Shown: piece after piece, positions 8,947-51,860 of the stretch | Layout: the number at the start of each line of letters is the position of its first letter | How positions within the stretch are numbered: the stretch's first letter is position 1 | Virus record (IMG/VR): IMGVR_UViG_3300009181_000042 | Location: 38,746 to 102,745 of that record | Source: a virus | Strand: one strand, 5' to 3' | DNA length: 64,000 nucleotides | Notes under the pieces: generated by a model | Database searches by the model: none | Seen by the model: the letters and a program-made list of their open reading frames with translations, nothing else | What the model was told of the DNA's origin: nothing | Made by a program: the position numbers and the translations under genes

Positions 8947-8953
8947 GGTCTTG

Positions 8954-9020: not shown

Positions 9021-9027
9021 GTTGTAC

Positions 9028-9714: not shown

Positions 9715-9720
9715 TGTGGT

Positions 9721-9746: not shown

Positions 9747-9785
9747 AATTGTTTCTATTGTACTTTATTTAGGCGGTAACTGCAA

Positions 9786-10927: not shown

Positions 10928-12588
10928 CACATGTCCTCTACTAACATTGAAACATCATTGTTGGCATCCATGCCAGTTATACTTTGTAACATCTTCTCAT
11001 GCTTCATGATTAGATCCATAGGACGTTCGCTAGTGAATATATCATCAACTAGGTCCTTGAATTCTAATAGGTCGCGTGTGAGATATTCTTTGGCTTCGCT
11101 AATAGGCAAGTCCTGACAACGGTTAGCTGCTTGTATAGCGTTGACATGCAGTTCTGTGTTGTGATTCATTGCCAACAAGTAGCTGAAACCATCCATGCTG
11201 CTGGGCCACTTTTCTTGATACTGTCCCAGCGAGTTAGCAAACTGATTGGTGCCAAGATCAAACAGCCCGCCATTCTCATGGCTGTGGATTTGGTATTCCT
11301 TGTATGCTTTGGTCCACTTGAATGGATCGTTAGCTTTGCCTTCTGGCGTGCTTGCCCAGTATCCGCAGTCGATCTCTTTTTTAGTAAATGCAATCTTCTT
11401 GCTTTCGAGATCATCATATCCGCGCACACAGATGTCGCCTACACTCACTCGATCGCCAATACGGCTGCGCACCGGAACCATCTTCTTAGGTAAGTTAGCA
11501 GCCATCCAATCGTTTAGTAGTTGCGGATTGTTCTTGAGCTCTTTACGATCTACAATAGGCCCGCCTTTGAAGCTGACATTCTCTGAACTAAGCTCGTGTC
11601 CATAATACATTTGTCCTTTGGCAGTCATCACAAACGGGCTTGCTGCGTCAAAGCTGATGGTTAGCTGAGGGTCAACATGCTTGCGCAGTGCACGTTGCAC
11701 TGATGTTAGTGCGCAGCCTGCTTTGATCTTGCCGTTACCCAGATAGTGCAACCACTCTCGACCTGCTAGATAGTTTTCATCGCGCATGATGATCAAGCGA
11801 CGCAGGTTGATGGTAAAGTTTGATGCCTGCACGTTAGAGAACGCCCAGCTTTCAAACGGCAAGTCTTTGGTTGCATCCCACCATACATCGCCTTCTTCCA
11901 TGTTACGACCCTGCAACACGTTGAGGAACTTGGTAGCACCCTCTTTGCGATGCTTGATGAAGAAGTGGTGATTGTCCAAGCTACCAGTCAAGCAGTCATT
12001 AAAGCTCTTGAGACTGGGATGCAAGCTGGCACCAGTGACTGGATCTAATCCAAACTTAACCAGCGCATACGTGGGCCAATCCAACACCATGCTGTAGTCT
12101 GCTGTGGCTTCTAGCCAGCGCAGCAGCTTCATGCGCACATCGTCTTTGTCGCTTTGATGTTCTTCTGCAGTTTGCTTGGCTTTAGCATGCCATGGATACT
12201 TGAGCACGCCTGTGGCTGCTTGGAACCCACCGCTGTCGCCCACCATCACAGTGTTAGCACGATTGCGCTGCTGTACCATGCGTTCTTGTACCCAGCTCTC
12301 AGCTGGGTCAAGTATAGCATGTCCTGCCGAATACAGTGCCACGGGATAGTAAAACAAGCTATTAGCAGGATCAAGAAAGTCCAGGTCTTTGAGGCCCTGT
12401 GGCAATCCTGCTGGCATCTTGTCACGCATGTTATACTGTACCATGCTTACGATCTTAGCATAGATCATGCTAATGCTCGGCAAGAACAGTGCATAATCGC
12501 TTTGTGTCGCTGCCATGTTGCGCACTTCTGGATTGAACTTGATGTGATCAGTATCGAAACTGAACCGCTTGAAATCTGGATTTATCAT
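10927..12588 (-). CDS. dpdA: TGT-fold transglycosylase, DpdA-like (inserts a 7-deazaguanine derivative into DNA)
   Basis: TGT motifs in order: GDSGGFQ, MVLDWP, NVLQG, LHYLGNG, ISFDAAS (catalytic Asp). Adjacent to folE/queD/queE. The subfamily cannot be assigned by eye. Confidence 0.8.
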   Translation of the reverse strand: MINPDFKRFSFDTDHIKFNPEVRNMAATQSDYALFLPSISMIYAKIVSMVQYNMRDKMPAGLPQGLKDLDFLDPANSLFYYPVALYSAGHAILDPAESWVQERMVQQRNRANTVMVGDSGGFQAATGVLKYPWHAKAKQTAEEHQSDKDDVRMKLLRWLEATADYSMVLDWPTYALVKFGLDPVTGASLHPSLKSFNDCLTGSLDNHHFFIKHRKEGATKFLNVLQGRNMEEGDVWWDATKDLPFESWAFSNVQASNFTINLRRLIIMRDENYLAGREWLHYLGNGKIKAGCALTSVQRALRKHVDPQLTISFDAASPFVMTAKGQMYYGHELSSENVSFKGGPIVDRKELKNNPQLLNDWMAANLPKKMVPVRSRIGDRVSVGDICVRGYDDLESKKIAFTKKEIDCGYWASTPEGKANDPFKWTKAYKEYQIHSHENGGLFDLGTNQFANSLGQYQEKWPSSMDGFSYLLAMNHNTELHVNAIQAANRCQDLPISEAKEYLTRDLLEFKDLVDDIFTSERPMDLIMKHEKMLQSITGMDANNDVSMLVEDM

Positions 12589-12593
12589 ATAAC

Positions 12594-12622
12594 AGTATGG
12601 CCTATGGCTGTGATCTTGTCAA
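12594..12622 (-). promoter_or_regulatory. sigma70-like promoter giving a probably leaderless dpdA mRNA
   Basis: TTGACA-N17-CATACT-N5-ATG, no SD. Confidence 0.6.
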
Positions 12623-13713
12623 GCATGAGTCAGCGCTTGTTTCAATGCGGTTGCGTTAAAGAACTTGTTACCAACCTGCTCGGCTTCGGCAAGTGCATGT
12701 GCTGCTAGGCTATTGCGCGACATCGCACTGCGAATGTGTGCAACAATCTTGTCTTTGTTAGCTTGATAGCTGTCCCAGTTCATGGTCCATTCGCTTGGAT
12801 AGCATTCCGACCACATCTCAGTGTAGCTCAGGCGATCTGGTACCATTGGATACGTGCCAACCAGCGCAGCTTCATACATGCTGATACCCAGTGTTTCTTG
12901 CAAGTTAGCACTGAATGCGATCTTGCTTTCGGCCAAGTGCTTGTGATACTCATTCTTGCTGAGTTTCTGATCCTGTGCTATGAACCACTCATACTCTGGC
13001 ATCGTCGCTGCTAGATCCTTGAATATCTCCAGTTGCTTCTCTGGTGCCAAGCGATGCGGGAATATGATCTTGTCCTGCTTGGCTGTGCTAGCAAATGGTG
13101 CCAGCAATGGTGCCATGTATTCCATGGGCCACCCAGTCAGCTTGAGACGATTGATCTCACTGTCCAAACACCCAGTGATGAACTCTTCGGTTTCGTCTTC
13201 AGAAAATAGAGTATCTACACCCAGTAGTTCGCGCAAGAACAAGTTGCTGTGGAATCGTGTGGCAAACCAATTGGTATCATAGGTATAGAACATGCTGGAT
13301 TCTGCATTGCGTACCCAAGGCTTATCGCCAACTAGCCGTCCCAAGAAGTCTTGCGGGTCATAGCTGCCAGCATGCCAAAGACCGTGTATCTCGATCTTTT
13401 TGCCAAGCAATTCAGCCATGTAGCGCAGCTGTATCACAGTAGGATTCCACGCATCAGTGTAGAGGAATTTGTCGCCGTCGTGTATGAGATTCTCACGAAA
13501 CAGCTGTGCGATGCTCATCAGCTGGCTGCTCTTGTAGATGTTTGTAGCACCAAAATCTAAGAACGCACCCGGTGTTGGTGTTGCAGGAACATTGTCCCCT
13601 TCGATGATGGCTACATCCGAGCCAACTGCGTCTAGCAGTTCGGGAATGTGTTCATACCACTGGCGTGTGTAGCGAGTGTCAATTGGTTCGATAGGGACGA
13701 TGTATATGGTCAT
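12619..13713 (-). CDS. GT-B glycosyltransferase (GT4-like)
   Basis: FPHRLAPEKQ and ETLGISMYE (Ex7E) motifs; ATGA-coupled start (MTIYIVPIEP). Confidence 0.8.
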   Translation of the reverse strand: MTIYIVPIEPIDTRYTRQWYEHIPELLDAVGSDVAIIEGDNVPATPTPGAFLDFGATNIYKSSQLMSIAQLFRENLIHDGDKFLYTDAWNPTVIQLRYMAELLGKKIEIHGLWHAGSYDPQDFLGRLVGDKPWVRNAESSMFYTYDTNWFATRFHSNLFLRELLGVDTLFSEDETEEFITGCLDSEINRLKLTGWPMEYMAPLLAPFASTAKQDKIIFPHRLAPEKQLEIFKDLAATMPEYEWFIAQDQKLSKNEYHKHLAESKIAFSANLQETLGISMYEAALVGTYPMVPDRLSYTEMWSECYPSEWTMNWDSYQANKDKIVAHIRSAMSRNSLAAHALAEAEQVGNKFFNATALKQALTHA

Positions 13714-14267
13714 TTTGGCTCCAGTGTCACGTTTAACTGTTCTAGTATCTCTAGGTAATGCTGCTCGCCAGCCGACACTTGCTCTAGCCAAGCTTGTCCG
13801 GCAGCAGCATCTGCATTATCGCTTATGTACTTGTAAACTTCAACTTCAATGTCTGCTGCTATAGCTGCTCGGACCACGCTGTATGCTTCCATCTCTACGA
13901 TATCGCAAGGTGCACGCAGCTTGTGTGGTTCAGTGACAAACAAATCACCACTGGCACAGATCTTGCCGTCTCCGCCTAGGTCGATGAAGCTAAGCTCATC
14001 TGCGAGATTCTCACAGGGTTGCAGTCCGATTGGTGTGTGGTTCATGTCGTGTTGGAAGAACTTGCTGCAGCGATAGATACCACTGCTCACTGTTATGCCG
14101 CCCGCAGTACCGAGATTGATCACACGTATGGGATCATGCAAGCTGATCAACCGCGACGTGTTGACGGCGCTGGCAACTTTGCCAACGCCGATAGCAAACA
14201 CGTTATCGTAGTTCCTTATGAGATTAGGCGCTTCGCTGGGCAGTGCCAGCAGTACCAGATCTCTCAT
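13710..14267 (-). CDS. MTA/SAH nucleosidase-like protein (PNP_UDP_1 family)
   Basis: ALPSE, GVGKVASA, VINLGTAGG, SGDLFV, VEMEAY, KYISDNAD. Confidence 0.85.
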   Translation of the reverse strand: MRDLVLLALPSEAPNLIRNYDNVFAIGVGKVASAVNTSRLISLHDPIRVINLGTAGGITVSSGIYRCSKFFQHDMNHTPIGLQPCENLADELSFIDLGGDGKICASGDLFVTEPHKLRAPCDIVEMEAYSVVRAAIAADIEVEVYKYISDNADAAAGQAWLEQVSAGEQHYLEILEQLNVTLEPK

Positions 14268-14650
14268 CAGACTTTCCAGCGCAGAAATGCACCGTTTTCG
14301 TCATCTTCGCTGACTTGGATCCAAACTTCTCGGCCTGGATAGCGTGCGGCAATCTGCTCGTACAGTGCTTCGCTGATCATCTCGCAGCTGCGATAGTTCA
14401 GTTCTAGTGTCTTTTCTGCATACAGCTTTTCTAGCCAACGCTTGAATTGGATGAACTCGATGTCGCGATCATTGTGTGTGACTGAGATCCATACTTGGAA
14501 GTGGAAGATGTGCCTGTGTGGATAGCCTAGGAAACTGACATCATACTCGTCGCCAGTAGCCAGCGCAGGATCAGTCAGCGCTGCTGGGTACTTGTGGATG
14601 CCTTCTTTATGGAATTTAACCCATATCATGCGCGAAGTTGGATCTGTCAT
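14267..14650 (-). CDS. T-fold QueD paralogue, DpdL-like (putative CDG decarboxylase)
   Basis: LGYPHRHIF matches the LxxxHRHxF signature I recall for DpdL; SCEMISE and VSEDDENG fit a QueD-like T-fold. GGAG SD. Confidence 0.7.
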   Translation of the reverse strand: MTDPTSRMIWVKFHKEGIHKYPAALTDPALATGDEYDVSFLGYPHRHIFHFQVWISVTHNDRDIEFIQFKRWLEKLYAEKTLELNYRSCEMISEALYEQIAARYPGREVWIQVSEDDENGAFLRWKV

Positions 14651-14673
14651 TATCATTCTCCATTTGATGAACA

Positions 14674-14702
14674 ATAATAACACAGTCTGGCGATCTAATC
14701 AA
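14674..14702 (-). promoter_or_regulatory. sigma70-like promoter heading the deazaguanine operon
   Basis: TTGATT-N17-TATTAT with TGn. Confidence 0.5.
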
Positions 14703-21932: not shown

Positions 21933-24146
21933 TTAACTGTAGTCCATGGTTATGCGATAAGCACCTTGTGTACTGGTTCCTACGCCAACAAATGCCTTGA
22001 TTGCAGTGGTTGTTATCACTGGATAACTCAGTGATGTGGTGTAAGATCCCACAGTTGTAGTATCTATCAGCGTGTTGTCCATGAGCAAACCTGGTATGCT
22101 GTCAGTACCTATAGATATGTTGCTGGCTGAGTCGTTAAATGCTGTGGTTATCTGCACATCTAAGAACACCACAGTCTTAGGTGCTGCCATGGTACCAACC
22201 ATAACTGGACTTGTGCTAGTGTATGTGCCAGCAGCTAGGAAGTTATAGATCAGCGTGGTGCTGCCAACCGAGCTGTTACCAATGTTATGACCATCTGTGC
22301 TCAGTCCGATTGGTTGCCATATAGTAGGAACGAGTGCTGCTGCAATGTACGCTTGGTTATGACCGCTGCCGTCGTCGTATACATACACAATCGTGCCCTG
22401 CGTCACAGTCAGCGCATCACGGTCAGCAATGGTATTGACAAAATAACCAACTGCAACACCTGTTGGCCCAGTCGGACCAGTCAGCTGGCTGATGCTGCTG
22501 ATGCTCCAGGCTACGATATCAACAAGGTCGCCTGTTACGCTAGGCGCATTTAGCGTGATCACGTTTCCGTTATTAGCCAGATATTCACTAGGAGTAAGCT
22601 TAACACCGTTGACAAAGACTTCTACATAGGGCGGCGTGTATGCACACACAAACTGCGTTTGCCCATTGGTAGCCGCAAAATTATATTCTTGGAACGCACC
22701 AACGTTTGCAGGACCAGTGGGACCAGTAGCCCCGCTGCCTGTTGGGCCAGTAGCACCTGTTGGATTGATACCTGCCAGCTGCCATGCTATGATGGTAACA
22801 GGATCCCCGCCAACTGCTGCGTTGTCTAGTACTACTGTAACGCCGTCTGTAGCCACATACAGATCCGGAGTTAACAATATACCGTTATAATAAACGTCTA
22901 TCCATCCTACGTAGTAGGCAGCTGGAAAAACCGTTTGGCCATTTGTGGCTACAATGTCAAATCGAGCATACGCACCCAGTGCTGCGGGACCAGTAGGACC
23001 AATAGGCCCAGTTGAACCGCTTGTACCAGTTGGTCCGGTAGCACCTGTGTTCACTGCAGTGCCTGGGGTACCAGTTGGTCCAGTTGGACCGGTTGGACCA
23101 GTAAATCCTGTGCTGCTACCTATCACTTGCCAGTATGCATTGGTATCTGTTGGATTGATACAGATGTATGCCACATGTGTGGTGATGTTGATCCATATAC
23201 TGCCAAATCCATACCCAATGGTCTCATCGTCATTGACAGTTGGCGGATTAAGTGCAGTGTAGTTGTTTAGAGGTCCAACATAACCAACCTGTGCAAGCTT
23301 TACTGCGCTAGCATCGTCAATCTTGATATAGACCGGCATAGCAAGATTGTTGGGTCTGACAGTTGTTAGCCCGCCAGGGACAGTGGTGCTTAGATATAGT
23401 ACATCACCGGGTAATCCCGGCAGGCCGCTGAGCCCGTACAGTATCTTGCCGCGCGGTTCCCAACTAAAATAATCATAACCAGGTATACCCAGCTGTCGTA
23501 CTGTACCGATCACAGCAGTAGTTGTGTAACTATTTGCTATGGCTAGCTGATATGATCCGTCGTTGCGTAGATATATGACATCGCCGACATCAAACCCGTA
23601 CCCCGGTTGGAATATGGTTACCAGATTCTGTTTGAGGTTTCTTGACTCAAACTTGCTGATGACATCTTGCAGGAACCCTGGATAGGGTTGTATGAAGCTG
23701 TTGTACAGTGTTAGCGTGTGGAATACAGGAATACCGTCTTCGTCTATGGCAAATATGAATCCCGGATCGCCAGTTGCTGCAACACCGTCTTGGCTAGAGA
23801 ACTGTTCCCAACGGCCAGTGTCTTCGATAACACATTCGATGTAATCAGCTGTTGCTGTGGTTATCTGCACTATCTGGGTACATTTACCAGTAGCAGCCTC
23901 GCCGTACCACATGCCAACTTGTATGTCTAATCCGTCGTATATGTACAGCTGAGGTGTGCTAAAGCTGCTGTGATTCTGCTGTATGACCGTGGCAGTCATG
24001 GTCCAGCGATAGGGCTGCGGAGCAGGACCGCCTTGCCACCATTGATCTTCGCCATATACCGGACCTTCGTCGACTGGCCAATAGTCTAAGGGAGTTATGG
24101 TGATGTTGTCTACAAACAGCGTGAGGATTGGTAGGATGGATGCCAT
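21933..24146 (-). CDS. virion structural protein with short GPT collagen segments (737 aa)
   Basis: GPTGPTG runs separated by two ATNGQT-F...DVYYNG/EVFVNG domains. Confidence 0.75.
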   Translation of the reverse strand: MASILPILTLFVDNITITPLDYWPVDEGPVYGEDQWWQGGPAPQPYRWTMTATVIQQNHSSFSTPQLYIYDGLDIQVGMWYGEAATGKCTQIVQITTATADYIECVIEDTGRWEQFSSQDGVAATGDPGFIFAIDEDGIPVFHTLTLYNSFIQPYPGFLQDVISKFESRNLKQNLVTIFQPGYGFDVGDVIYLRNDGSYQLAIANSYTTTAVIGTVRQLGIPGYDYFSWEPRGKILYGLSGLPGLPGDVLYLSTTVPGGLTTVRPNNLAMPVYIKIDDASAVKLAQVGYVGPLNNYTALNPPTVNDDETIGYGFGSIWINITTHVAYICINPTDTNAYWQVIGSSTGFTGPTGPTGPTGTPGTAVNTGATGPTGTSGSTGPIGPTGPAALGAYARFDIVATNGQTVFPAAYYVGWIDVYYNGILLTPDLYVATDGVTVVLDNAAVGGDPVTIIAWQLAGINPTGATGPTGSGATGPTGPANVGAFQEYNFAATNGQTQFVCAYTPPYVEVFVNGVKLTPSEYLANNGNVITLNAPSVTGDLVDIVAWSISSISQLTGPTGPTGVAVGYFVNTIADRDALTVTQGTIVYVYDDGSGHNQAYIAAALVPTIWQPIGLSTDGHNIGNSSVGSTTLIYNFLAAGTYTSTSPVMVGTMAAPKTVVFLDVQITTAFNDSASNISIGTDSIPGLLMDNTLIDTTTVGSYTTSLSYPVITTTAIKAFVGVGTSTQGAYRITMDYS

Positions 24147-24159
24147 GGTTATGCTTCCA

Positions 24160-25491
24160 TCATCCGGTGAATATCATGGTAACCCAGAGATATCCATTAC
24201 CGCTAGTTGGTATACCAGTGTTACCAGGCGTCAGTGCAAACAAGCTGGTACTGTCAATAGTCAAGCTCAATGCGCTGTATGATCCGCCAGTTGCACCAGT
24301 TGGCACTGTTTGCCTATAAGCACCTGCTGGTTGGACCAACGGTCCACCCTGGCAGCTCACTATGCTAGGGTATTGGTTCAAGTTGTGATCAATGGTGATC
24401 TGTGTATCACTCAGTCTGGTTATCTGAGGTGCTGTTATGTTGACCAAGTTGTCCGCAAATGCAGTCGGTGCAATGATACCGCTGTTAAAGATCAATCTAA
24501 AGCTTATCAGGCTGGTTGCTGCTGGACCAGCTGAGCCAGTAGGACCACTTGGACCAGTAACGCCCTGTGTACCAGTCGGACCTGTTACTGCGCTGACAGG
24601 ACCCGTTGGTCCAGAATTACCCGTGGGCCCTGTGCCACCAGTCGGGCCAATTGGCCCGCCACTAGGACCCGTAGGACCGGTAACAGTTGATAGATTGGCT
24701 ATCTCCCAGGCTACAATGCTGACTGGGTCGCCGCCCAGCGCAGCGTTAGTTAATGTTACAGACGTGCCGTTGTCTGCGATATAATCGTTGGTTGGTACTA
24801 ACAACAGCCCGTTGTAGTAGACATCAACAAATCCTGGTTCGTATGCAGCAGCAAACACAGTCTGTCCGGGTGCTGCATACGTGTCGTATCGCATGAATGC
24901 ACCACTAGCAGCCGGACCAGTGGGGCCTGCGTTGCCAGTTGGACCTGTGCTATTTGGTCCGGTTGGACCTGGCGGACCCGGCGGGCCTTGTGCACCACCA
25001 GTGTTGGTAGCCTGCGGTGCATTGCCGCCGCCGGCAATGGCACCATAATTCAGCAGTATCTGACTGACCTGACCAACGAAATATACATCAGTTGGCGGCG
25101 GTACGAGATACTTGCGATCTACAACAGCACGCACCCAAACATAGTTGCCACTAAAATTGTAAGCGTAAATGCCAGTGTCACCGTTGGACGAATTAGGTGA
25201 TCCGTTTAGTGGCCATTGATTTAATTCTGGATTATAACCAGTTGGCAGTGCAGGATCTAACGGGAATTGCACATATGATGTGCCGTACCCGATTGGAATG
25301 TTGAACCAATCAGTTTCCTTTGGATCACTAGCCAAGCTGCCCTGTATATAGATGCGGCCTGTGAAATTGTCCAAATTGATGCTGACGGTGTGATTATTAC
25401 CAACCGTGTTGTTATAACCAGCGCCAGGCTGTTTAATGCCAATGACGTTGAGCTGATCTCTGGTATTAGTTAATAGTGTGACGCTGATCAT
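24160..25491 (-). CDS. virion structural protein with GPT collagen segments (443 aa)
   Basis: Same GQTVF...DVYYNG domain and collagen runs; TAAATA upstream. Confidence 0.75.
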   Translation of the reverse strand: MISVTLLTNTRDQLNVIGIKQPGAGYNNTVGNNHTVSINLDNFTGRIYIQGSLASDPKETDWFNIPIGYGTSYVQFPLDPALPTGYNPELNQWPLNGSPNSSNGDTGIYAYNFSGNYVWVRAVVDRKYLVPPPTDVYFVGQVSQILLNYGAIAGGGNAPQATNTGGAQGPPGPPGPTGPNSTGPTGNAGPTGPAASGAFMRYDTYAAPGQTVFAAAYEPGFVDVYYNGLLLVPTNDYIADNGTSVTLTNAALGGDPVSIVAWEIANLSTVTGPTGPSGGPIGPTGGTGPTGNSGPTGPVSAVTGPTGTQGVTGPSGPTGSAGPAATSLISFRLIFNSGIIAPTAFADNLVNITAPQITRLSDTQITIDHNLNQYPSIVSCQGGPLVQPAGAYRQTVPTGATGGSYSALSLTIDSTSLFALTPGNTGIPTSGNGYLWVTMIFTG

Positions 25492-29862: not shown

Positions 29863-30552
29863 TTGGATTCGAAACAACAAATAACGCTAGTCCAGATATT
29901 CATGCGGTATCTCAAGACTACTAACCCACTTGTGATTGGGTTGCACCTCATCTATTTGGCAATTACTACGTTGATATTCAGCGCAGCCTATGTGGTCAGT
30001 TTTCATTTTACCACATTGGTATCCTTATACGAAGAAGCACACAGCATACAGAGCTTTGGCCTTAATCTCAAGACTTCGGTTGAAAATGACAATGCCATAT
30101 ATGCCAATTTGACTCGATTACAAACAGATGCTGGCGGCATGAGAACCTATGTATATAGATATCACAATGGTTTAGCAGCTATAAGTGGTGTGCCATTCTT
30201 CTTTCAGACCATGACGCACGAAGTGATTGCGCCGGGTGCAGCAAGGATAATGAGCTTTGAACAGCGCATACCTGCTGGTATACACATGGCCATAAACAAC
30301 GCATTCGTAACTGACAAGTGCGCAGTGATACGCAACACTGACCGAGACAAGGAAAATCAGGACTATTATTTCTGGGCAAGCAGGGGTGCCAGAAACCTTG
30401 TGCGTTGTCCTATATACATGCCAAATGGTGACTTGTTTGGCTTTGTTGGCGTTGACTTTGCTGGCGACATGGGCAATGTTGCCAATGTTGAGAAACAGAC
30501 CAAAGACACTGCCAGTGAGATATCTAAGATATTTGCCAAGGCTGCTCGCTGA
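29863..30552 (+). CDS. single-pass membrane protein with GAF-like C-terminal domain, possibly T4 holin T-like
   Basis: Hydrophobic segment VIGLHLIYLAITTLIFSAAYVVSF; C-terminal CPIY...GDLFGFVGVDF; TAAATA at 29824. Confidence 0.5.
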   Translation: MDSKQQITLVQIFMRYLKTTNPLVIGLHLIYLAITTLIFSAAYVVSFHFTTLVSLYEEAHSIQSFGLNLKTSVENDNAIYANLTRLQTDAGGMRTYVYRYHNGLAAISGVPFFFQTMTHEVIAPGAARIMSFEQRIPAGIHMAINNAFVTDKCAVIRNTDRDKENQDYYFWASRGARNLVRCPIYMPNGDLFGFVGVDFAGDMGNVANVEKQTKDTASEISKIFAKAAR

Positions 30553-30582
30553 AATATTTAGGAAAGATCTGATTTTAGCCTT

Positions 30583-30588
30583 TAAATA
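30583..30588 (+). promoter_or_regulatory. T4-late-like promoter heading the RLP/glycosyltransferase operon
   Basis: TAAATA in the intergenic gap, 27 nt before ATG 30616. Confidence 0.55.
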
Positions 30589-30615
30589 GGTTAAACGCAC
30601 AGGGACTTTCTACGC

Positions 30616-31329
30616 ATGCAGATCCTAATACCAATGAGCGGCGCCGGTAAGCGCTTTGCAGAAGTGGGATACGACAAACCCAAACCACTGATAGAGTTTT
30701 TTGGCAAGCCAATGGTCGAGCATGTGCTTGAAAACCTTGGATTGCATAACGAATTCATACTGTGCGTGCAGCGTGCGCATTATGATGCCAATCCTGCACT
30801 GTTTGCAAGATTGCGAGCACAAACAGCTGATCTAAAGCTGGTGTTTGTGGAACAGCTAACACAGGGTGCAGCCGAAACCTGCTTGCTAGCACGCGAGCAT
30901 ATCAAGCTAGATGAACCCTTGTTCATTGCCAACTGCGATCAGATGATGGTCTGGGATCAAGACCATTTCGAAGAATGGTTTGCTGCTGAACGACTGGACG
31001 GCTGCATGTTTACGTTTTTCAAGGACACTACTGCTTATAGCTATGTTGCAGTTGATGACAATAGTCTAGCTGTACGCACCGCAGAGAAGCAAGTGATCAG
31101 CACGCATGCTACTACTGGCATCTATGTATGGGCCAGAGGCAGTGATTTCATCTGGGCAGCCGAAAAAATGATAGCAGATAACGTGCGGGTGAATAATGAA
31201 TTCTATGTGTGCCCGGTGTATAATTGGAACATAGCACGCGGTGATCGCATTGGCATATATCCTCCGCAGGAACATTGGCCGATAGGTACACCAGAGGACC
31301 TAGACATCTACATCGAGGCGCACGCATGA
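30616..31329 (+). CDS. sugar-phosphate nucleotidyltransferase (BcbE/GlmU-like GT-A fold)
   Basis: IPMSGAGKRF...PKPLI, TQGAAET, IANCDQ, AEKQVIS, NEFYVCPVYN, GTPEDL. Confidence 0.88.
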   Translation: MQILIPMSGAGKRFAEVGYDKPKPLIEFFGKPMVEHVLENLGLHNEFILCVQRAHYDANPALFARLRAQTADLKLVFVEQLTQGAAETCLLAREHIKLDEPLFIANCDQMMVWDQDHFEEWFAAERLDGCMFTFFKDTTAYSYVAVDDNSLAVRTAEKQVISTHATTGIYVWARGSDFIWAAEKMIADNVRVNNEFYVCPVYNWNIARGDRIGIYPPQEHWPIGTPEDLDIYIEAHA

Positions 31330-31664
31330 AACTATATGATCCCACCAGCTTTAAAGGTGGCTGGTTCATAGGTGATTTTGAACCTAGCATCTGGCGAACC
31401 AGCGCATACGAAGTTGGGTATAAGCATCACATTGCCGGCGAGCCGTGGCCTGCTCATTATCACGAACACATGGACGAAGTTACTTTCTTGTTAGAGGGTA
31501 CCATGCGCATGCAAGACCAAGTGCTAACAGGACCTGTGCTGTTCTTGATAGAACGCAACGACGTAGCCGATCCAGTGTTTGTGACAGATTGCAAAGTGTT
31601 CATAGTAAAAGCACCCAGCGTGCCAGGCGACAAAATTGAAATCAACAAAGGACAACTCAAATGA
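31326..31664 (+). CDS. cupin-fold protein
   Basis: GGWFIGDF; AHYHEHMDEVTFLLEG (HxHxxxxE); ATGA-coupled. Confidence 0.75.
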   Translation: MKLYDPTSFKGGWFIGDFEPSIWRTSAYEVGYKHHIAGEPWPAHYHEHMDEVTFLLEGTMRMQDQVLTGPVLFLIERNDVADPVFVTDCKVFIVKAPSVPGDKIEINKGQLK

Positions 31665-32803
31665 CGATTGATATCGTACGAGACGAAAAAGAGCTAGGTA
31701 CGTATTTCTATGTTACCTATGAAGTGGAGAGCACGGTCAGTGTATACGATGCTGGGTGGAACATTGCAGTCGGACAAAGCATAGGTAACCCCACCAAGCG
31801 CAGTGTCTGGGAGACAGACGACATGATCGAGAACCACTGTGCAAAGATAATGCGCAGTAAGGACTTTGAAAAGAAGAAAGGGCGTGTCACTATTGCGTAC
31901 CCTAACGCAAACATAGACTGGGAAACTGACGGTATCGCGCATCTACTGTGCATGATACAGGGCGGACAAGTAGACATTGATACCATCAGGAAATGTCGAG
32001 TAGTTGACCTAGAGATACACCCCCAGACCATAGACACCTATTTCCGTAAACCAAAATACGGTATCACAGGTATGCGCGAGTACACAGGGAACTTCGGCAA
32101 GCCATTCTTTGGTGGGATCGTAAAACCCAAGACAGGTATCACGCCACAGATCCTGCTGGAAATGACCAAAGAACTAGTCGAAGGCGGTGTTAACTTCATC
32201 AAGGAAGATGAGATACTCAGCAATCCAAACATATGCCGCTTGGAAGATCGTGTTGAGCTGATCAGCAATTACTTACAAGACAAGCGAGTCGTATACTGCT
32301 TCTGCATCAACAGCGACCCTGCACACATCGAAAACCGCGCTCGCTTTGTTAGCCAGAACGGTGGTAACGGTGTACACATCAACGTGTGGAGCGGGCTCGG
32401 CAGCTATCGTACCATACGCAATTTGGATCTGCCGCTGTTCATACACTATCAAAAGAGCGGCGACAAGGTGATCACCGGCAAGCGTAACCCGTTTGGTATC
32501 GAATGGACTGTGCTGTGCCAGCTGGCTGCTATGAGCGGAGTTGATACCATACATGCTGGTATGTGGGGCGGTTATCTCAGCGATCCAGAAGATGAGATCA
32601 CTGCATACATGAAGGTGCTGCACGACGGTAATGTAGTCCCTGCACTTAGCTGCGGTATGACTGCGGAATTGATCCCACCGATTGTTGAGAAGTTTGGCAT
32701 AGATTGGATGGCCAATGTGGGCGGCGCTATACATGGTCATCCAGATGGCACACTAGCTGGTGCTCGCAAGATACGCAACGCTATTGATACATACCAATAT
32801 TGA
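31661..32803 (+). CDS. RuBisCO-like protein (form IV), 380 aa
   Basis: GGIVKPKTG, GGVNFIKEDE (carbamylation motif), GVDTIHAG, PALSCG, GGAIHGHPDG. Confidence 0.92.
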   Translation: MTIDIVRDEKELGTYFYVTYEVESTVSVYDAGWNIAVGQSIGNPTKRSVWETDDMIENHCAKIMRSKDFEKKKGRVTIAYPNANIDWETDGIAHLLCMIQGGQVDIDTIRKCRVVDLEIHPQTIDTYFRKPKYGITGMREYTGNFGKPFFGGIVKPKTGITPQILLEMTKELVEGGVNFIKEDEILSNPNICRLEDRVELISNYLQDKRVVYCFCINSDPAHIENRARFVSQNGGNGVHINVWSGLGSYRTIRNLDLPLFIHYQKSGDKVITGKRNPFGIEWTVLCQLAAMSGVDTIHAGMWGGYLSDPEDEITAYMKVLHDGNVVPALSCGMTAELIPPIVEKFGIDWMANVGGAIHGHPDGTLAGARKIRNAIDTYQY

Positions 32804-32819
32804 AACGCTGCGAGGACTG

Positions 32820-33293
32820 ATGCTGATCATAGCACATAGAGGATTGCTTGATGGTCCGGATGCCGACAGGGAGAATCGCCCAGATCAGATACAGCAGGCG
32901 CTAGCCGAAGGGTTTGATGTCGAGATTGATCTATGGCGCATAGATCATACATGGATGCTGGGCCACGATGTTCCAACATACATGGTGTCTGAAAATTTCA
33001 TCAAACAGGACGGCCTTTGGATACACTGCAAGAATCTCGCTGCATTCTTCTATCTGCGAAACATTGGTAGCGAATACAATTTCTTTTGGCACGATAGCGA
33101 TCTCATTGTCATGACCAGCAGGTTCTTAACCTGGACATATTTTGGTAAGCCAGAAACTGCGCATCACACGAGCGTGTGTGTCATGCCAGAAGTTACATAC
33201 GATTGGCCTACCATAGAAAACATGTTCGACAAGAACGAGTGGTATGGATTCTGCACAGATTATCCGAGGAAGCTTGCTGCATGCAAAAGATAG
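32820..33293 (+). CDS. GDPD/PLC-like phosphodiesterase-fold protein
   Basis: IIAHRG...EN...GFDVEIDLW...LGHD...WIHCKN...CTDYP; GAGGA SD. Confidence 0.8.
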   Translation: MLIIAHRGLLDGPDADRENRPDQIQQALAEGFDVEIDLWRIDHTWMLGHDVPTYMVSENFIKQDGLWIHCKNLAAFFYLRNIGSEYNFFWHDSDLIVMTSRFLTWTYFGKPETAHHTSVCVMPEVTYDWPTIENMFDKNEWYGFCTDYPRKLAACKR

Positions 33294-34018
33294 CGCTATG
33301 TCTCACAGGGCACTTTAGGAATTTTGAAATTGCCTGGCCCTATCTAAAGAAACATGTGATAGATCCGTATCAACCAGACGTGTTTGGATTTGCGTGGGGC
33401 GATACATTTGGCAATTTCATGCATGCTAAAGATAAAGATCATCCCAGTTACACGCTAGGGTATGATCCGGCTAGCCAGGACATACCTCGCGACTATGCAG
33501 AAAGTGTCGCCAGGCGTTTACATCCCAAGGTACTTGAAGTATTTGATCCAACTAGTATCAACCCACTGCTAGATGAACTGATAGCCAAGCATAAAGATGT
33601 TGAACCAGACTGGGAATGGCACCGTCCTAGATCAAAGTATCAGATGTTGTACGGCCGTGCGCATTGCAACAATCTACGGCTAGAATATGAGAAGCTGTGT
33701 GGTGCTAGTTACGACAAGATCATATTCACTCGTTGGGATATAATACACGAAGATCCATTGCCGCAATGGTGCCTCTGGGACACTAGATTGATATTACCAC
33801 GTAGATATGCATACAACGGACCGTCTGATATATGGGCAGTAGGTACCAGTAGCCAGGTCAATGCATATGCAGATATGCTGTCGTCCTATGACGCCGTCAA
33901 ACAAACTCCAAATTTCGTATCAAATCCACACTTATGGTTGCGCGATGCGCTGGCATATTCTAATGTAGAGTGGATATTGTGCAATATCCCTGTAATGATA
34001 GCAAACAGGCCATTCTGA
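33281..34018 (+). CDS. putative glycosyltransferase-like protein
   Basis: KIALCLTGHFR, YDKIIFTRWDI, SDIWAVG; start reassigned to ATG 33281. Confidence 0.6.
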   Translation: MQKIALCLTGHFRNFEIAWPYLKKHVIDPYQPDVFGFAWGDTFGNFMHAKDKDHPSYTLGYDPASQDIPRDYAESVARRLHPKVLEVFDPTSINPLLDELIAKHKDVEPDWEWHRPRSKYQMLYGRAHCNNLRLEYEKLCGASYDKIIFTRWDIIHEDPLPQWCLWDTRLILPRRYAYNGPSDIWAVGTSSQVNAYADMLSSYDAVKQTPNFVSNPHLWLRDALAYSNVEWILCNIPVMIANRPF

Positions 34019-34025
34019 GGTACCA

Positions 34026-34988
34026 ATGAAGATAGCTGTATATGGTCTGGCAAAAAATGACCTAAATTTGATAGATCGATGGATTCACAGCGTGTCACCC
34101 GCTGATTATCTCGTCATTGGTGATCTTGGTAGCAGCGACGGCAGCGTAGATGTGCTGCGAAGTAACACCGTGACAGTGCATGAGATCAGCATGAGCAGAT
34201 TGCGATTTGATCGTGCTCGAAACACAGTATTAAATCTACTACCAAATGATACCGACGTTTGTATCAGTTGCGACCTCAGAGAATTTATGATGCCTGGGTG
34301 GCGATCGAACATCGAAAGGAGCTGGGTGTCAGGCAGCACCCGCATGATACACTCGTATGTACAAAGTTTCAACTTAGATCAGTATCCACCATTTAGATCA
34401 GCTGAGAACATGATACATGCTAGACATGGATCAAACTGGCGTCGTCCGATACGAGAACGTCTTGGATCAACTACACTAGACAAATGGATAACCAACCTCG
34501 ATATAGTGTTGTGCCATAATGGCGAGCCCTATATCGATGCAGCCGAACTGTTAGATTTGTTACAAGTATCGCATGCTGAAGATCCTACTTGCTTGGAAAC
34601 TATGTTCTTGTTTGGCAGCGAGCTTGCACATCGAGGTATCAAACCACATGCAATTACTATGTTGCGCAAGTTCCTCAATGCGCCATCGATTGGGTTATCG
34701 GTCGAACGTAGTGAAGCCTGGCGCTTGTTAGCTGGTCTCGAGCCGCATGAGAAGTTGAAGAATCTACGTCTTAGCACAATAGCAGATCAGACTCGTCGAG
34801 AGCCTTGGTTAGAGCTCTGTGAGCATTATCTAAAGGTATCCGATTGGGCCAATCTCTACGCTGCTTGCAAGGAAGCTATGCAAATACAAAAAAACACACT
34901 TAACAGCGCTGATAATCCCGATGCATGGAGCAATCGATTCTCAGAATTGCAAAGCACTGCTATAGCTGAACTTGGTATATCAAAATGA
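34026..34988 (+). CDS. GT2-like glycosyltransferase with TPR-like tail, degenerate DxD
   Basis: DLGSSDGS, RFDRARN, CISCDLRE; helical C-terminus paralogous to 35646 and 36715. Confidence 0.75.
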   Translation: MKIAVYGLAKNDLNLIDRWIHSVSPADYLVIGDLGSSDGSVDVLRSNTVTVHEISMSRLRFDRARNTVLNLLPNDTDVCISCDLREFMMPGWRSNIERSWVSGSTRMIHSYVQSFNLDQYPPFRSAENMIHARHGSNWRRPIRERLGSTTLDKWITNLDIVLCHNGEPYIDAAELLDLLQVSHAEDPTCLETMFLFGSELAHRGIKPHAITMLRKFLNAPSIGLSVERSEAWRLLAGLEPHEKLKNLRLSTIADQTRREPWLELCEHYLKVSDWANLYAACKEAMQIQKNTLNSADNPDAWSNRFSELQSTAIAELGISK

Positions 34989-35644
34989 CCACGTTGGCAC
35001 TGTGTTTTGCAGGTCTACCTCGCATAACAGACACTAGCACTGATAGCTGGCGTCGACTGATAGAACAACACAATACTGATGTATTTGTGCATGCATGGTC
35101 AACTGAGACAGAACTTGCTCGCAACTGGATCAGTGCTACCTATGCACCAGTTGAAATGATAATAGATGCCCCTCGACAGTTTGATACAAGCCGATATGTT
35201 AACAGGATCTGGGCGTACATATCAGAACCTCGTAATGTGCTAAGCATGTGGTACAGCATAGCACAAAGCTTGTCGCTTGCTGATAGGTATGCGCATGCAC
35301 ATCGCAAGACCTATGATTATGTTGCACGAGCTCGGTTTGATTGGCACTGTGACCAGTTCACGCTAGAAACATATGACGGCCTAACAGTACCGGATGATCC
35401 GGGTCTTTGCAATCACAATTTCCAGCACAGAGGACAATGGTATGTGGCACACAATGATCAATTTGGTTATGGCAGCATGCACGTGATGCGAGACTACGGT
35501 GAAACATTCTCGAGGATACCCTGGTTATATGCCACAGATGGCATAGACTTCTGCAGTGAATTATTTTTAACAACAAATATGATAACCAAGCAAATTCCGG
35601 TTAAATTACAAAAGGGCATGCGCTATCGCATGGTAAGGAACTGA
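34985..35644 (+). CDS. putative glycosyltransferase-like protein
   Basis: LALCFAGLPR, DVFVHAW, SMWYSI, YDYVARARFD, NDQFGYG. Confidence 0.6.
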   Translation: MTTLALCFAGLPRITDTSTDSWRRLIEQHNTDVFVHAWSTETELARNWISATYAPVEMIIDAPRQFDTSRYVNRIWAYISEPRNVLSMWYSIAQSLSLADRYAHAHRKTYDYVARARFDWHCDQFTLETYDGLTVPDDPGLCNHNFQHRGQWYVAHNDQFGYGSMHVMRDYGETFSRIPWLYATDGIDFCSELFLTTNMITKQIPVKLQKGMRYRMVRN

Positions 35645-35645
35645 T

Positions 35646-36713
35646 ATGAAAATCGCCGTATATACCATATCACTTAACGAGATCAAGCACTGCGAACGCT
35701 GGGCTAACAGCGTAACAGATGCTGATTATCGCGTGGTACTCGATACAGGTAGCACAGATGGCACGGTAGAAAAACTCAGAGAGCTGGGTGTCACAGTATT
35801 TGAACAGCGTTTTGATCCGTGGCGGTTTGATCATGCTCGCAATGCTGCACTAGCATGTGTACCAGATGATGCAGAGATCTGCATCAGCCAGGACATGGAT
35901 GAGTTCCTTGCAGAAGGATGGCGGCCTAAGATGACAGCTGCTTGGCACACAGGCGAGACCACACGCTTGGCCTATACGTATGTGTTTGATTATCGAGACG
36001 GCGGGGCCAATGCCGGTTTCCGCATGGACAAGATACATGCCAGGACAGGCTACGAATGGAAAAGGCCTGTACATGAGACTGTTTTTAACACAACGGGTCG
36101 TGAGGTTGTAGCAGAAGATCTCAGCATTGCATTGAACCAGATACAGGACCGCAACAAGGGCACACGCAGCAATTATCTACCACTGATGGCCGTAGCCACC
36201 AAAGAAGATCCCAAGGATAGCCAGCTGAGCTTTTGGTATGGGCGCGAGCTGATGTATGCCAATCAACACAGCGAAGCGGTTGCAGAACTAAATCGATATC
36301 TTGATCTTGAGACCAGCAGATGGCCGGTTGAACGTAGCGAAGCTATGCTCTATATGTCTCGCATGAGCGATAGCCGCAAGCTTGAATTCATACAGCGTGC
36401 GCTGATATGCTCGCCTGAGCGCAGGCAAGTATGGTTAGAACTGGCCCGCTATTATTACAACACGCAAGATTGGCACGGACTGCTATGGGCATGCGGAAGC
36501 GGTATGGAGCGTAGCAGACGTGATCACAGCTACTTAGATCATGCAGAAGCCTGGGGCAACCAGCTGCTGGATTTTGGTGCTATTGCAGCAGCAAATCTAG
36601 GTTGGTATACTCAAGCAGCCGATTGGTGCCAACAAGCACTGGACCTGCAGCCAACAGACGATAGATTAAAGAACAATCTGCAGTGGATGCAGAGCAAGAA
36701 AAAGGAGCAGTGA
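35646..36713 (+). CDS. GT2 glycosyltransferase with TPR repeats
   Basis: DTGSTDGT, WRFDHARN, CISQDMDE, WKRPVHE; TPR-like C-terminus. Confidence 0.88.
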   Translation: MKIAVYTISLNEIKHCERWANSVTDADYRVVLDTGSTDGTVEKLRELGVTVFEQRFDPWRFDHARNAALACVPDDAEICISQDMDEFLAEGWRPKMTAAWHTGETTRLAYTYVFDYRDGGANAGFRMDKIHARTGYEWKRPVHETVFNTTGREVVAEDLSIALNQIQDRNKGTRSNYLPLMAVATKEDPKDSQLSFWYGRELMYANQHSEAVAELNRYLDLETSRWPVERSEAMLYMSRMSDSRKLEFIQRALICSPERRQVWLELARYYYNTQDWHGLLWACGSGMERSRRDHSYLDHAEAWGNQLLDFGAIAAANLGWYTQAADWCQQALDLQPTDDRLKNNLQWMQSKKKEQ

Positions 36714-36714
36714 T

Positions 36715-37788
36715 ATGCGTATTGCAATATATGGACCAACCAAGAATCAAGTGCATCACGTACAAGCATGGTACGACAGCTGCAAGGATGCTGATGCAAT
36801 ATGCATAGCTGATACCGGCAGCACAGATGGTACCAAAGAAGCCATGATTGCACTGGGCATACAAGTGACAGATGTTAGGATCGTGCCGTGGAGGTTTGAT
36901 GATGCGTTCAACACGGCAATGTATTTGGTACCAGATGACATTGATGTTTGTATACGACTGGACACTGATGAGCGATTGGTCAAAGGCTGGCGCAAGGCAT
37001 TGGAAAAAGCATGGACAGCTGAGACCACACGGCTGCGATATCCGTACACCTGGAACTGGAACCCAGATGGCACTCCTGGCCGCCAATGGTATGGCGATCG
37101 CATACATGCTCGCAAAGGGTATCGTTGGATGGGTGCCACGCATGAAGGTTTGATCAGCCGCACACCAGAGATCCAGACATTCACTGAAAATGTCAAGATA
37201 CATCATTTCCCAGATCCAAAAAGCAAATCTGGTGACTTATCGCTGCTAGAAGAAAGCGTGCGCGAATGGCCGCATGATGCTAGGATCAAAGCGTACTTGG
37301 CTCGCGAATACATGTACCAAAAGCAGTTTGATAAAGCTGCAGAGACCTACAAAGAATTCCTCGGCATGAGCTATGACACTGCAGAACGCTGCCAGGCGCT
37401 AACATCATTAGCACAAGCCGAACCAGACAACAAAGTGTTTTGGTTGAAGCAAGCTGCGTATGAAGTCCCAACTCACCGCGAACCTCTGGTGTATCTAGCA
37501 CAGCATTACTATGAAAAAGCTGAGTGGAAGAACTGCTATGATCATGCCAAGCGTGCGCTAAAGATCACTAAACATCCAATGGATTATACATGCACACCAG
37601 AAGCTTGGGGCTGGCAACCACTTGATCTAGTGAGTATTGCTGCATGGAACCTCAAGTTGTACGAAGAATGCTTGGAATACGCAAAGTTAGCACTTGAAAA
37701 ATTGCCAAACGATACCAGGCTTCAAAATAACCTGAGATTGATCGAAGAATTCATAGAAAAGAACCTACGGTCAAATGATGCTGTTTGA
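36715..37788 (+). CDS. GT2 glycosyltransferase with TPR repeats
   Basis: DTGSTDGT, WRFDDAFN, CIRLDTDE, WMGATHE; TPR-like C-terminus. Confidence 0.88.
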   Translation: MRIAIYGPTKNQVHHVQAWYDSCKDADAICIADTGSTDGTKEAMIALGIQVTDVRIVPWRFDDAFNTAMYLVPDDIDVCIRLDTDERLVKGWRKALEKAWTAETTRLRYPYTWNWNPDGTPGRQWYGDRIHARKGYRWMGATHEGLISRTPEIQTFTENVKIHHFPDPKSKSGDLSLLEESVREWPHDARIKAYLAREYMYQKQFDKAAETYKEFLGMSYDTAERCQALTSLAQAEPDNKVFWLKQAAYEVPTHREPLVYLAQHYYEKAEWKNCYDHAKRALKITKHPMDYTCTPEAWGWQPLDLVSIAAWNLKLYEECLEYAKLALEKLPNDTRLQNNLRLIEEFIEKNLRSNDAV

Positions 37789-37803: not shown

Positions 37804-38412
37804 ATGAAACTGTTAGATCTCGATAACCATACCACAATCTGTCTCGCAGAAGACCGGTCCTCGTTTGCATTCATGGGCGAGGCAGGTACAGGACGAGTTG
37901 TCAAAGGTGTCAACACAACGCCAGATGTTGGGGTTAACGAGATACCACGGCAGGCTGCTAAGTTTAAGATACAAGTTAACAGAGACGGTTATCCGCCCGT
38001 AGCTCGTAGCAACGGTAAGATACCCAAGCTTGAATCTGCTGATATTAACGAAGCTAATAAATGGCTCAAGGCTGGTGCAGTAGCAGCAGCGCTAGCTGGG
38101 GCTGGCATGGGCGGTACAGCTCGTGCTCAGGATACTACTTCAACTAATGTTGCAATGCAATCGCAAGCACAACTGGTAGATCCTACATTTATGGGTAAAA
38201 ATTCCCGGGTACTTGTGGTTAATAAGAACAAATGGTTGGCAACTAATCCTCGGCCAGCCCAAATTGAAGATTATAACGAAATGATCGATTTCTTTAACAG
38301 ATCAGTACCAGTTACTGGTAAAGATGGCAGGAAGACAGCAATTATAGGAACTATAAAGTGGTTAGCTGATCCGCGCAATGCCGGAAGAGGTTTTAACGAA
38401 TCTAAACGATAG
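37804..38412 (+). CDS. hypothetical late protein with internal signal-peptide-like segment
   Basis: TAAATA 5 nt upstream; internal KWLKAGAVAAALAGAGMGGTARAQD. Confidence 0.75.
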   Translation: MKLLDLDNHTTICLAEDRSSFAFMGEAGTGRVVKGVNTTPDVGVNEIPRQAAKFKIQVNRDGYPPVARSNGKIPKLESADINEANKWLKAGAVAAALAGAGMGGTARAQDTTSTNVAMQSQAQLVDPTFMGKNSRVLVVNKNKWLATNPRPAQIEDYNEMIDFFNRSVPVTGKDGRKTAIIGTIKWLADPRNAGRGFNESKR

Positions 38413-38450: not shown

Positions 38451-38645
38451 TCAGATTCTGCTACGCTTGCTTGCTGCTTTAGCATCTTCCTCTGTAGCTT
38501 CAACTGCGATAGGAACCCAGCGCTGTGGGATCGGTAATCCACTTTTTCGATAGTAATCCAAATCAGCATCAGGATCGTCTACTTGTGTCCAAACCATCCA
38601 TTTGCCGTCAAGTGCACGCTGTTTGATATCGTGTTTCTTTTCCAT
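38451..38645 (-). CDS. small hypothetical protein
   Basis: 64-aa ORF filling the gap, with purine-rich leader. Confidence 0.65.
   Translation of the reverse strand: MEKKHDIKQRALDGKWMVWTQVDDPDADLDYYRKSGLPIPQRWVPIAVEATEEDAKAASKRSRI

Positions 38646-41536: not shown

Positions 41537-45730
<4,194 letters not shown>

Positions 45731-46181: not shown

Positions 46182-51860
<5,679 letters not shown>

Follow-up and report, generated by a model that had tools for sequence, protein, structure and literature searches.

A phage RuBisCO-like protein gene tied by synteny and gene fusion to a nucleotidyltransferase: a probable source of sugar phosphate for glycan synthesis

To our knowledge, every characterised RuBisCO-like protein (RLP) acts in salvage or catabolism. 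MtnW (DK-MTP-1-P enolase) and OiaX (3-oxo-isoapionate-4-P decarboxylase), for example, are salvage or catabolic enzymes and are not linked to a nucleotidyltransferase (NTase). The subject of this report is an RLP encoded in a 64,000-nucleotide stretch of viral DNA (termed the window), which comprises bases 38746–102745 of the 102,745-bp IMG/VR virus record IMGVR_UViG_3300009181_000042. The window RLP has the fold common to MtnW and OiaX and retains the Mg-carbamate enolisation residues, and like them it is predicted to be non-carboxylating; however, it scores only 102–130 bits with the models of these two enzymes, whose cut-offs are 409–700 bits. Its gene forms a cassette with genes for an NTase, a small cupin and a miniature protein with the fold of the glycerophosphodiester phosphodiesterases (GDPDs). 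Because of synteny, gene fusions and a glycan context, the RLP is read here as an enzyme that would make, by enediolate chemistry, a sugar phosphate which the NTase activates for glycan synthesis (probability about 0.6).

The original prediction for this locus, made from the letters alone, knew of no characterised RLP in a phage or with a biosynthetic role of this kind; about 80 “form IV-like” phage RLPs had already been published with their function left open (Jaffe et al. 2019, PMC6389311). These share several properties with the set described here: the RLP is divergent, it occurs in many environments on large contigs of phages of myovirus type, and it clusters with Beckwithbacteria. The text of that paper does not mention a neighbourhood of NTase, cupin and GDPD genes, and the terms “nucleotidyl” and “glycosyl” are absent from it. 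A paper on Lac Pavin (PMC9875498) has nothing on phage RLPs. In the literature searched there was no coupling or fusion of RLPs with NTase, cupin or GDPD genes, and no report linking an RLP with a cytidylyltransferase, a capsule or LicD. The new element is the coupling to NTase, cupin and GDPD genes together with the fusions, i.e. the biosynthetic context, and not the phage RLP itself.

Nucleotide activation of sugars offers two comparisons. In ManC, an NTP_transferase domain is followed by a cupin, and this order is also displayed by four fusion proteins described below (L043, L057, P0121, P0122). The window differs from ManC in that its cupin is only 112 aa long and falls below the Pfam cut-offs, and in the addition of an RLP and a GDPD-like protein, both absent from ManC pathways. 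In the CDP-6-D-fructose/CDP-6-D-glucitol system of Campylobacter jejuni HS:5, an NTase activates an open-chain ketose phosphate via its primary phosphate; formation of CDP-6-fructose from CTP and fructose-6-phosphate is established (PMC10918830). BcbE of Pasteurella multocida, the capsule nucleotidyltransferase named in the original prediction, is required together with BcbG for the fructose side chain (PMC13552107).

The cassette opens a run of nine + strand genes at positions 30616–37788, which overlap or nearly abut, as seen in the open reading frame listing and its translation. All nine had been proposed as coupled genes, and this was confirmed. Families in the window were assigned with Pfam, NCBIfam and PHROGs. 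The four genes of the cassette are:

30616–31329, + strand: NTase (NTP_transferase fold), 237 aa; PF00483, PHROG 3980
31326–31664, + strand: small metal-type cupin, 112 aa; HxH...E motif, AlphaFold2 (AF2) model, PHROG 24762
31661–32803, + strand: form IV-like RLP, 380 aa; PF00016 and PF02788, residues, tree
32820–33293, + strand: miniature GDPD-fold phosphodiesterase-like protein (mini-GDPD), 157 aa; invariant motifs, AF2/Foldseek

The RLP belongs to the RuBisCO large-subunit superfamily, with both domains above the Pfam cut-offs: PF00016 (5e-37; 128.1 bits, cut-off 30.1) and PF02788 (31.3 bits, cut-off 20.7). In sequence it is closest to form III RuBisCOs and to several RLPs, with low identity throughout. 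It falls under every NCBIfam cut-off, scoring 177 bits for form III (cut-off 497), 130 bits for OiaX (cut-off 700), and 127 and 102 bits for the two MtnW models (cut-offs 409 and 513.6, i.e. 514).

Functional residues were compared by aligning 75 members of the clade defined below to labelled references, both RuBisCOs of forms I–III and OiaX-like proteins. The form I–III references carry the canonical residues in this alignment, which validates the C-terminal columns. Residues K175, K177, K201, D203, E204, H327, S379, G381 and G403 are kept in 75/75 members and G404 in 73/75. The substitutions H294 to Q, K334 to Y and G380 to C are present in 75/75 members, R295 to K in 73/75 and H298 to D in 68/75, and E60 and N123 are not conserved across the clade. 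The window RLP has Q264, Y305, K265 and D268 at the H294, K334, R295 and H298 positions, and its H262 corresponds to H292. The loss of H294, K334 and H298 argues that the RLP is not a carboxylase. Together with the kept set K175/K177/K201/D203/E204, this makes enolisation chemistry plausible and carboxylation not plausible, as judged from the residues. OiaX-like proteins show the reverse pattern, having lost K177 and kept K334 and H294.

These data bear on the proposal that the protein is a bona fide CO2-fixing RuBisCO of form III type that supports nucleotide salvage. Its top PDB and NCBIfam sequence matches are indeed form III enzymes. The invariant or nearly invariant replacements at positions 294, 334 and 298, the replacement of R295, the lack of conservation of E60 and N123, the form III score of 177 bits against 497, and the position of the clade in the tree, among form IV RLPs and away from form III, leave this proposal with a negligible probability. 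OiaX was also rejected, by score and because OiaX-like RLPs form a separate clade (SH-aLRT 100).

A quick IQ-TREE phylogeny was computed from 99 sequences, with form III references above cut-off, form I, II and OiaX-like sequences labelled by NCBIfam, and no authentic MtnW sequence in the set. In this tree the RLPs linked to an NTase fall into a single clade, which has 75 members from phages and cells (SH-aLRT 99, stem 1.04). The clade is nested within a group of form IV sequences (97) and is distinct from the OiaX-like RLPs as well as from forms I–III. Its basal branches are cellular: Nonomuraea, Elusimicrobia and Turneriella, then Legionellaceae/Francisellaceae, followed by DPANN and one SAR11 set. 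The sequence from Beckwithbacteria (L096) branches as the sister of a crown rich in phages, in which the window RLP groups with loci L003–L009 (98). A profile of the clade (A3) gives 326–671 bits with members and at most 178 bits with everything else. By membership, rather than by comparison with the sequences of Jaffe et al., the clade appears to match their “form IV-like” group of phage and Beckwithbacteria RLPs. The clade members come from phages, SAR11, Legionella, an actinomycete, candidate phyla radiation (CPR) bacteria, DPANN, Azospirillum and Turneriella. Compared with the earlier group, this adds SAR11, Legionellaceae, Nonomuraea, Azospirillum, Turneriella and DPANN, and a tie to the NTase by synteny and fusion. 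One clade RLP of 724 aa (P0142), encoded on a 59-kb contig, has a C-terminal extension of ~340 aa that is unlike any cassette protein of the window.

Conservation of gene content was assessed in 80 viral loci from IMG/VR, whose RLPs are 53–92% identical and which were scanned by tblastn, and in 50 cellular loci from named genomes. The viral loci have an NTase gene in 78/80, a cupin gene in 73/80 and a mini-GDPD gene in 65/80, nearly always on the same strand and within 1–3 kb. In the cellular loci the NTase gene is adjacent in 46/50, the mini-GDPD gene in 23/50 and the cupin gene in 16/50. Overall, an NTase stands beside the RLP in 124/130 loci. The predicted recurrence of the four-gene synteny in phages and in bacterial glycan loci is thus borne out, and extends to archaeal ones. 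Cellular carriers include a complete Pelagibacter chromosome, Legionella nautarum, L. maceachernii, L. drozanskii, Nonomuraea rosea, Azospirillum oleiclasticum, and CPR and DPANN metagenome-assembled genomes. The order NTase-cupin-RLP-GDPD was counted 53 times and RLP-NTase 17 times; over 20 further gene orders were also present. That the genes stay together despite a shuffled order argues for selection on co-location.

In Nonomuraea rosea (L122, NZ_BAABDQ010000069, positions ~5000–14700) the locus contains genes for a GDPD-like protein, RLP, cupin, NTase, a GT2 glycosyltransferase (GT), an NAD-dependent dehydrogenase with an AdoHcyase-type NAD domain, and a dNK-like kinase. This cassette lies between a phage-type integrase and a transposase, on a mobile island in an actinomycete.

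Several open reading frames are fusions of cassette genes. A search for length-shifted homologues, with RLP residues 140–380 as query, yielded RLP-NTase fusions of ~670 aa (PF00016 and PF00483) in at least 19 protein clusters, as well as RLP-NTase-cupin triple fusions of 813–817 aa (P0121, P0122). The BLAST layout is RLP(1–393)-NTase(430–657) in the former type and RLP(1–375)-NTase(398–629)-cupin(719–810) in the latter. In addition, NTase and cupin are fused in frame in L043 and L057. Such “Rosetta-stone” fusions are the strongest evidence that RLP, NTase and cupin would act in one pathway.

The NTase displays PF00483 with 37.7 bits (cut-off 21.2; 2e-9) and matches PHROG 3980 (7e-61). In its signature G-x-G-x-R-(x)n-K, G9 and R13 are invariant and G11 and K23 nearly so. 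With the Pfam score and the N-terminal signature, the protein is classed from its sequence as a sugar-phosphate nucleotidyltransferase. The best PDB match of the family profile is 4evw, an NDP-sugar pyrophosphorylase (3e-37).

The cupin and the GDPD-like protein are below all Pfam cut-offs, and for this reason homologues were aligned (58 and 49 in the two alignments) and structures predicted. In the cupin, H44-x-H46...E51...G58 is invariant. The AF2 model has a pLDDT of 95, and its Foldseek matches are small cupins, among them two minimal phosphomannose isomerases of Thermococcus (7zvy and 7zvm); PHROG 24762 is matched at 1e-21. By metal motif 1, G(x)5HxH(x)3-4E(x)6G, and the modelled fold, the 112-aa protein is a member of the cupin superfamily. 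The mini-GDPD has the invariant residues H6, R7, E35, D37, H49, H69, K71, H91 and D94 (HR, ExD and H motifs), and its profile matches the N-terminal half of the GDPD 7e0v (7e-5). Its AF2 model (pLDDT 93.7) has only GDPDs as top Foldseek matches, with TM-scores of ~0.5–0.6. At 157 aa it is shorter than the full (beta/alpha)8 barrel of ~240 aa, and it has no Pfam (PF03009) or NCBIfam match, so that its assignment refers to a predicted fold. A full-length PF03009 GDPD replaces the mini form in 11 cellular loci.

The RLP could instead be an auxiliary metabolic gene for salvage or catabolism that recycles nucleoside-derived sugars, by methionine/methylthioadenosine (MTA) salvage, 5-deoxyribose disposal or the AMP/ribose-1,5-bisphosphate (R15P) pathway, and then the glycan neighbours would be coincidental. 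Characterised RLPs act in such pathways, and the MTA-isoprenoid shunt of Rhodospirillum rubrum has an RLP and cupin pair. In eight viral loci an APH/MtnK-family kinase follows the RLP, and the window has a weak match to PNP_UDP_1, a nucleosidase/phosphorylase family, at ~13710–14267 on the – strand (38.6 bits summed; G000:C1:52503-52940). However, the near-obligate adjacency or fusion to an NTase has no role in those pathways, and the distal-site residues K265, D268 and H298 are polar or basic, not hydrophobic as a methylthio or deoxy tail would probably need. No gene of the MtnA/R15P-isomerase (IF-2B) family was found in this record or in four related phage records, of which two are complete. 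With this result and the MtnW scores (102 bits against 513.6 and 127 against 409), MtnW was rejected; as had been anticipated, the RLP lies outside methionine salvage, in a separate clade. The salvage proposal is thus very unlikely.

The neighbours of the cassette were surveyed by clustering all open reading frames of the 130 loci and the window (131 loci) and scanning representatives. Recurrent neighbours are an NAD-dependent sugar epimerase/dehydratase, WavE-like proteins, GT11, GT6, GT4, GT2, a DegT aminotransferase, SDR, a DHQS-like cyclase, UDP-GlcNAc 2-epimerase, radical SAM proteins and an APH-family kinase. In four Legionellaceae, LicD divergently adjoins the RLP-NTase pair.

Downstream of the cassette, the run of nine genes continues with genes for proteins with tetratricopeptide repeats (TPR) and for a second family:

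33281–34018, + strand: DUF7796-like paralogue a, 245 aa; PF25072 4e-7, PHROG 13607
34026–34988, + strand: GT2-like and TPR paralogue a, 320 aa; PHROG 13126 “beta-1,4-glycosyltransferase” 8e-49, no Pfam match
34985–35644, + strand: DUF7796-like paralogue b, 219 aa; PF25072 1e-4, below cut-off; PHROG 13607 2e-14
35646–36713, + strand: GT2 and TPR paralogue b, 355 aa; PF00535 7.7e-6, TPR, PHROG 13126 2.5e-85
36715–37788, + strand: GT2 and TPR paralogue c, 357 aa; PHROG 13126 5e-92, TPR, weak PF00535

The original prediction placed two “GT-like” proteins before three GT2-TPR proteins; the former are in fact DUF7796-like, and the two kinds of gene alternate. DUF7796-like proteins are found in 46/131 loci, often as 2–3 paralogues. 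Their profile has no meaningful sequence match in the PDB and finds only its own viral family in the Atlas, which has no structure model for it and where the clusters nearest to paralogue b are viral DUF7796. For GT2 (PF00535, cut-off 23.3), paralogue b scores 26.4 bits and paralogue c 16.6 bits. All three GT2-TPR proteins match PHROG 13126 (8e-49 to 5e-92), and the N-terminus of paralogue a is paralogous to b and c.

About 8 kb downstream, an open reading frame of 1892 aa (46182–51860, + strand) has 840 residues in 20 collagen-like Gly-X-Y runs, the longest being 135 aa; 218/280 triplets (78%) are G-X-T. It is a candidate substrate for O-glycosylation. Shorter Gly-X-Y tracts occur at 41567–45730, 21933–24146 and 24160–25491. 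Protein glycosylation in the window phage, as suggested by the collagen-like protein and the TPR-bearing GT2 proteins, is a reasonable idea. The activated sugar might instead decorate the phage DNA (hypermodified bases) or the envelope of the infected host. Large phages do glycosylate DNA, and the cellular cassettes (SAR11, Legionella, DPANN) sit in cell-surface glycan loci. Yet the TPR domains on three GT2 proteins suggest protein acceptors, and a G-X-T collagen-like protein is nearby; DNA or envelope as the acceptor in place of virion proteins is considered unlikely.

In the run of nine genes, 4-nt ATGA overlaps are present at the NTase/cupin, cupin/RLP and GT/DUF junctions; there is one 13-nt overlap, and the remaining junctions are gaps of 1–16 nt. 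The 63-nt gap 5′ of the NTase gene contains one further feature:

30581–30588, + strand: TTTAAATA motif; may be a late-type promoter

This TAAATA-type motif had been noted ahead of the operon and is present, but is not enriched: the window contains 2 copies, and 1.5 would be expected at random. At this near-chance frequency the motif has no statistical weight. No convincing sigma-70 sites were found, and none in the gap 5′ of the NTase gene. Co-directional + strand genes flank the run at 29863–30552 and 37804–38412; their conservation is confined to the nearest relatives, with 6 and 4 loci respectively. With this tenth co-directional gene at 37804–38412 and a terminator-like hairpin at 38525–38542, the transcription unit may extend further.

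CheckV gives the record a completeness of 20%, which implies a genome of ~500 kb. A relative (L005, IMGVR_UViG_3300017917_001342) has an RLP of 77% identity and the same cassette; it is complete at 518,643 bp with direct terminal repeats (CheckV 100%) and is a potential reference genome for this phage group. Near-identical DNA is present in freshwater/lake metagenome runs from several studies. Neither the operon nor the RLP gave a match by megablast/tblastn among 50,697 phage records, a set from which near-identical records may be absent.

The NTase family is also found without an RLP. Cultured Synechococcus myophages have GT-rich loci with an NTase of 28–45% identity, a mini-GDPD of 32–43% identity and no RLP. 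The modules of S-CAM9, S-PRM1, B3, S-SM2, Bellamy and S-SKS1 have NTase and mini-GDPD as in the window, but in place of the RLP the “feeder” is HAD_2, RibB, a class II aldolase or a GmhA-like protein. In S-SKS1 (NC_020851; L135:7001-8428), a 475-aa protein is a fusion between an N-terminal NTase and a DHBP synthase/RibB domain (5e-65). From this fusion one would expect either that a four-carbon keto phosphate is activated with a nucleotide or that ribulose-5-phosphate is used. Fusions of the NTase with HAD_2 are present in S-CAM9, B3 and a gammaproteobacterium; in S-SM2 the NTase gene adjoins a class II aldolase gene and GmhA-like genes.

Among 400 sampled Gammaproteobacteria, the NTase family is present in 10, with an RLP in Legionella only. 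The contexts without an RLP are LicD with HAD_2-NTase, a TagF-like glycerophosphotransferase with HAD_2 and Wzy_C, and NTase-NTase with GT2. The last is a 557-aa tandem with two NTP_transf_3 stretches beside GT2 in gammaproteobacterium G448 (L188:4521-6194). A 522-aa protein of S-SM2 (L084:7001-8569) also has two NTP_transf_3 stretches, and lies beside GT61. The mini-GDPD profile found nothing in the 10 gammaproteobacterial genomes with the NTase family; thus the mini-GDPD is no universal partner of the NTase. The RLP-less contexts suggest an NTase that stays constant and several interchangeable sugar-phosphate feeders, of which the RLP is one. The cassette is, on balance, probably a horizontally mobile module for a nucleotide-activated sugar, in which an enzyme of RuBisCO fold would serve as feeder of the NTase.

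A pathway can be proposed from gene content, folds, motifs, clade membership, neighbourhood and fusions, which are observed; its chemistry, substrate, nucleotide and acceptor are given as suppositions. The rearranged or branched sugar of the original prediction, and its transfer to virion proteins, are likewise suppositions. As substrate the RLP would take a phosphorylated ketose, which may be a bisphosphate; a pentulose or a ketose with a longer chain, drawn from the pentose-phosphate pool, is probable. Its Mg-carbamate machinery (K175, K177, K201, D203, E204) would form an enediolate and lead to isomerisation or epimerisation, with neither carboxylation nor cleavage. The small metal cupin may carry out a further aldose-ketose isomerisation or epimerisation. 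The NTase would join the phosphate of the product to an NMP, giving an NDP-linked sugar, and the mini-GDPD may perform a phosphodiester step at an unspecified position in the pathway. The DUF7796-like and GT2-TPR proteins would transfer sugars to an acceptor, which may be the Gly-X-Thr collagen-like fibre.

The donor may be an open-chain keto-sugar or polyol linked through its primary phosphate, or a classical nucleotide sugar made from a sugar-1-phosphate. The former is slightly favoured because of RLP chemistry, the RibB fusion, the LicD/TagF-like partners, the association with GDPD and the precedent of CDP-6-fructose. As in the logic of CDP-ribitol with LicD/TagF, such phosphotransferases adjoin this NTase family in Legionellaceae and other gammaproteobacteria. 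Unlike the CDP-6-fructose and CDP-ribitol systems, the core has no conserved reductase and the phage loci have no LicD/TagF-like gene.

In the classical alternative, which leaves the general role unchanged, the RLP and cupin would turn a ketose phosphate into an aldose phosphate that is converted to a sugar-1-phosphate, either by a host mutase or by isomerisation of a bisphosphate from ketose-1-phosphate to aldose-1-phosphate, and the NTase would form an NDP-hexose or NDP-heptose for Leloir GTs. The nearest characterised relatives of the NTase favour it: after 4evw, the profile fits GMPP, RmlA and HddC (1e-12 to 1e-7) above IspD-type enzymes (1e-4) and also matches GlmU, and the NCBIfam matches are exclusively sugar-1-phosphate NTases. 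So do the likeness of the cupin to minimal phosphomannose isomerases, the ManC-like architecture of the NTase-cupin fusions, the fusions of the NTase with HAD_2 (beta-phosphoglucomutase family) in RLP-less variants, and the abundance of Leloir GTs and of NDP-sugar epimerase/dehydratases in the loci, where GT11 occurs together with a GDP-mannose-dehydratase-like SDR. The RLP retains the P1 phosphate site, and its residue at position 295 is still basic, which is compatible with a bisphosphate. Set against these, the conserved core contains no mutase or anomeric kinase, minimal loci consist of RLP and NTase only (17 arrangements), RLP-NTase fusions imply consecutive steps, and known RLP chemistry gives open-chain keto phosphates. 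The product of RibB has a primary phosphate only, and a RibB-NTase fusion would be unable to yield a sugar-1-phosphate. A classical donor is possible, though doubtful.

Some observations weigh against the proposed pathway. The order of the NTase profile matches and the pairing of NTase and cupin, which mimics ManC (GMP and phosphomannose isomerase), are unfavourable to the open-chain donor, and a LicD or TagF-like gene was present in 0 viral loci. GDPDs normally hydrolyse glycerophosphodiesters, and we know of no biosynthetic role established for them. The GT2-TPR genes are found only in the 6–7 closest relatives of the window and are thus outside the conserved core, and the cassette and the collagen-like protein are linked by proximity alone.

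A further, tentative reading is that this clade puts the RuBisCO fold to biosynthetic use and makes a novel keto-, epimerised or rearranged sugar phosphate, which would be directly nucleotide-activated, in the natural fusions by the same polypeptide, and installed on surfaces, i.e. the envelopes of SAR11, Legionella and DPANN and the Gly-X-Thr collagen-like fibre of the window phage. If true, this would add a new class of RLP reaction and a new nucleotide-sugar. Natural RLP-NTase-cupin fusions and culturable carriers (Legionella nautarum, Nonomuraea rosea) make the question directly testable. A large, widely transferred clade wired to an NTase in glycan loci would, if the reading holds, give the RuBisCO superfamily a biosynthetic role. 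An undescribed activated sugar would then be expected at the surface of abundant organisms (SAR11, freshwater and marine phages, Legionella and CPR/DPANN), and could bear on phage-host recognition.

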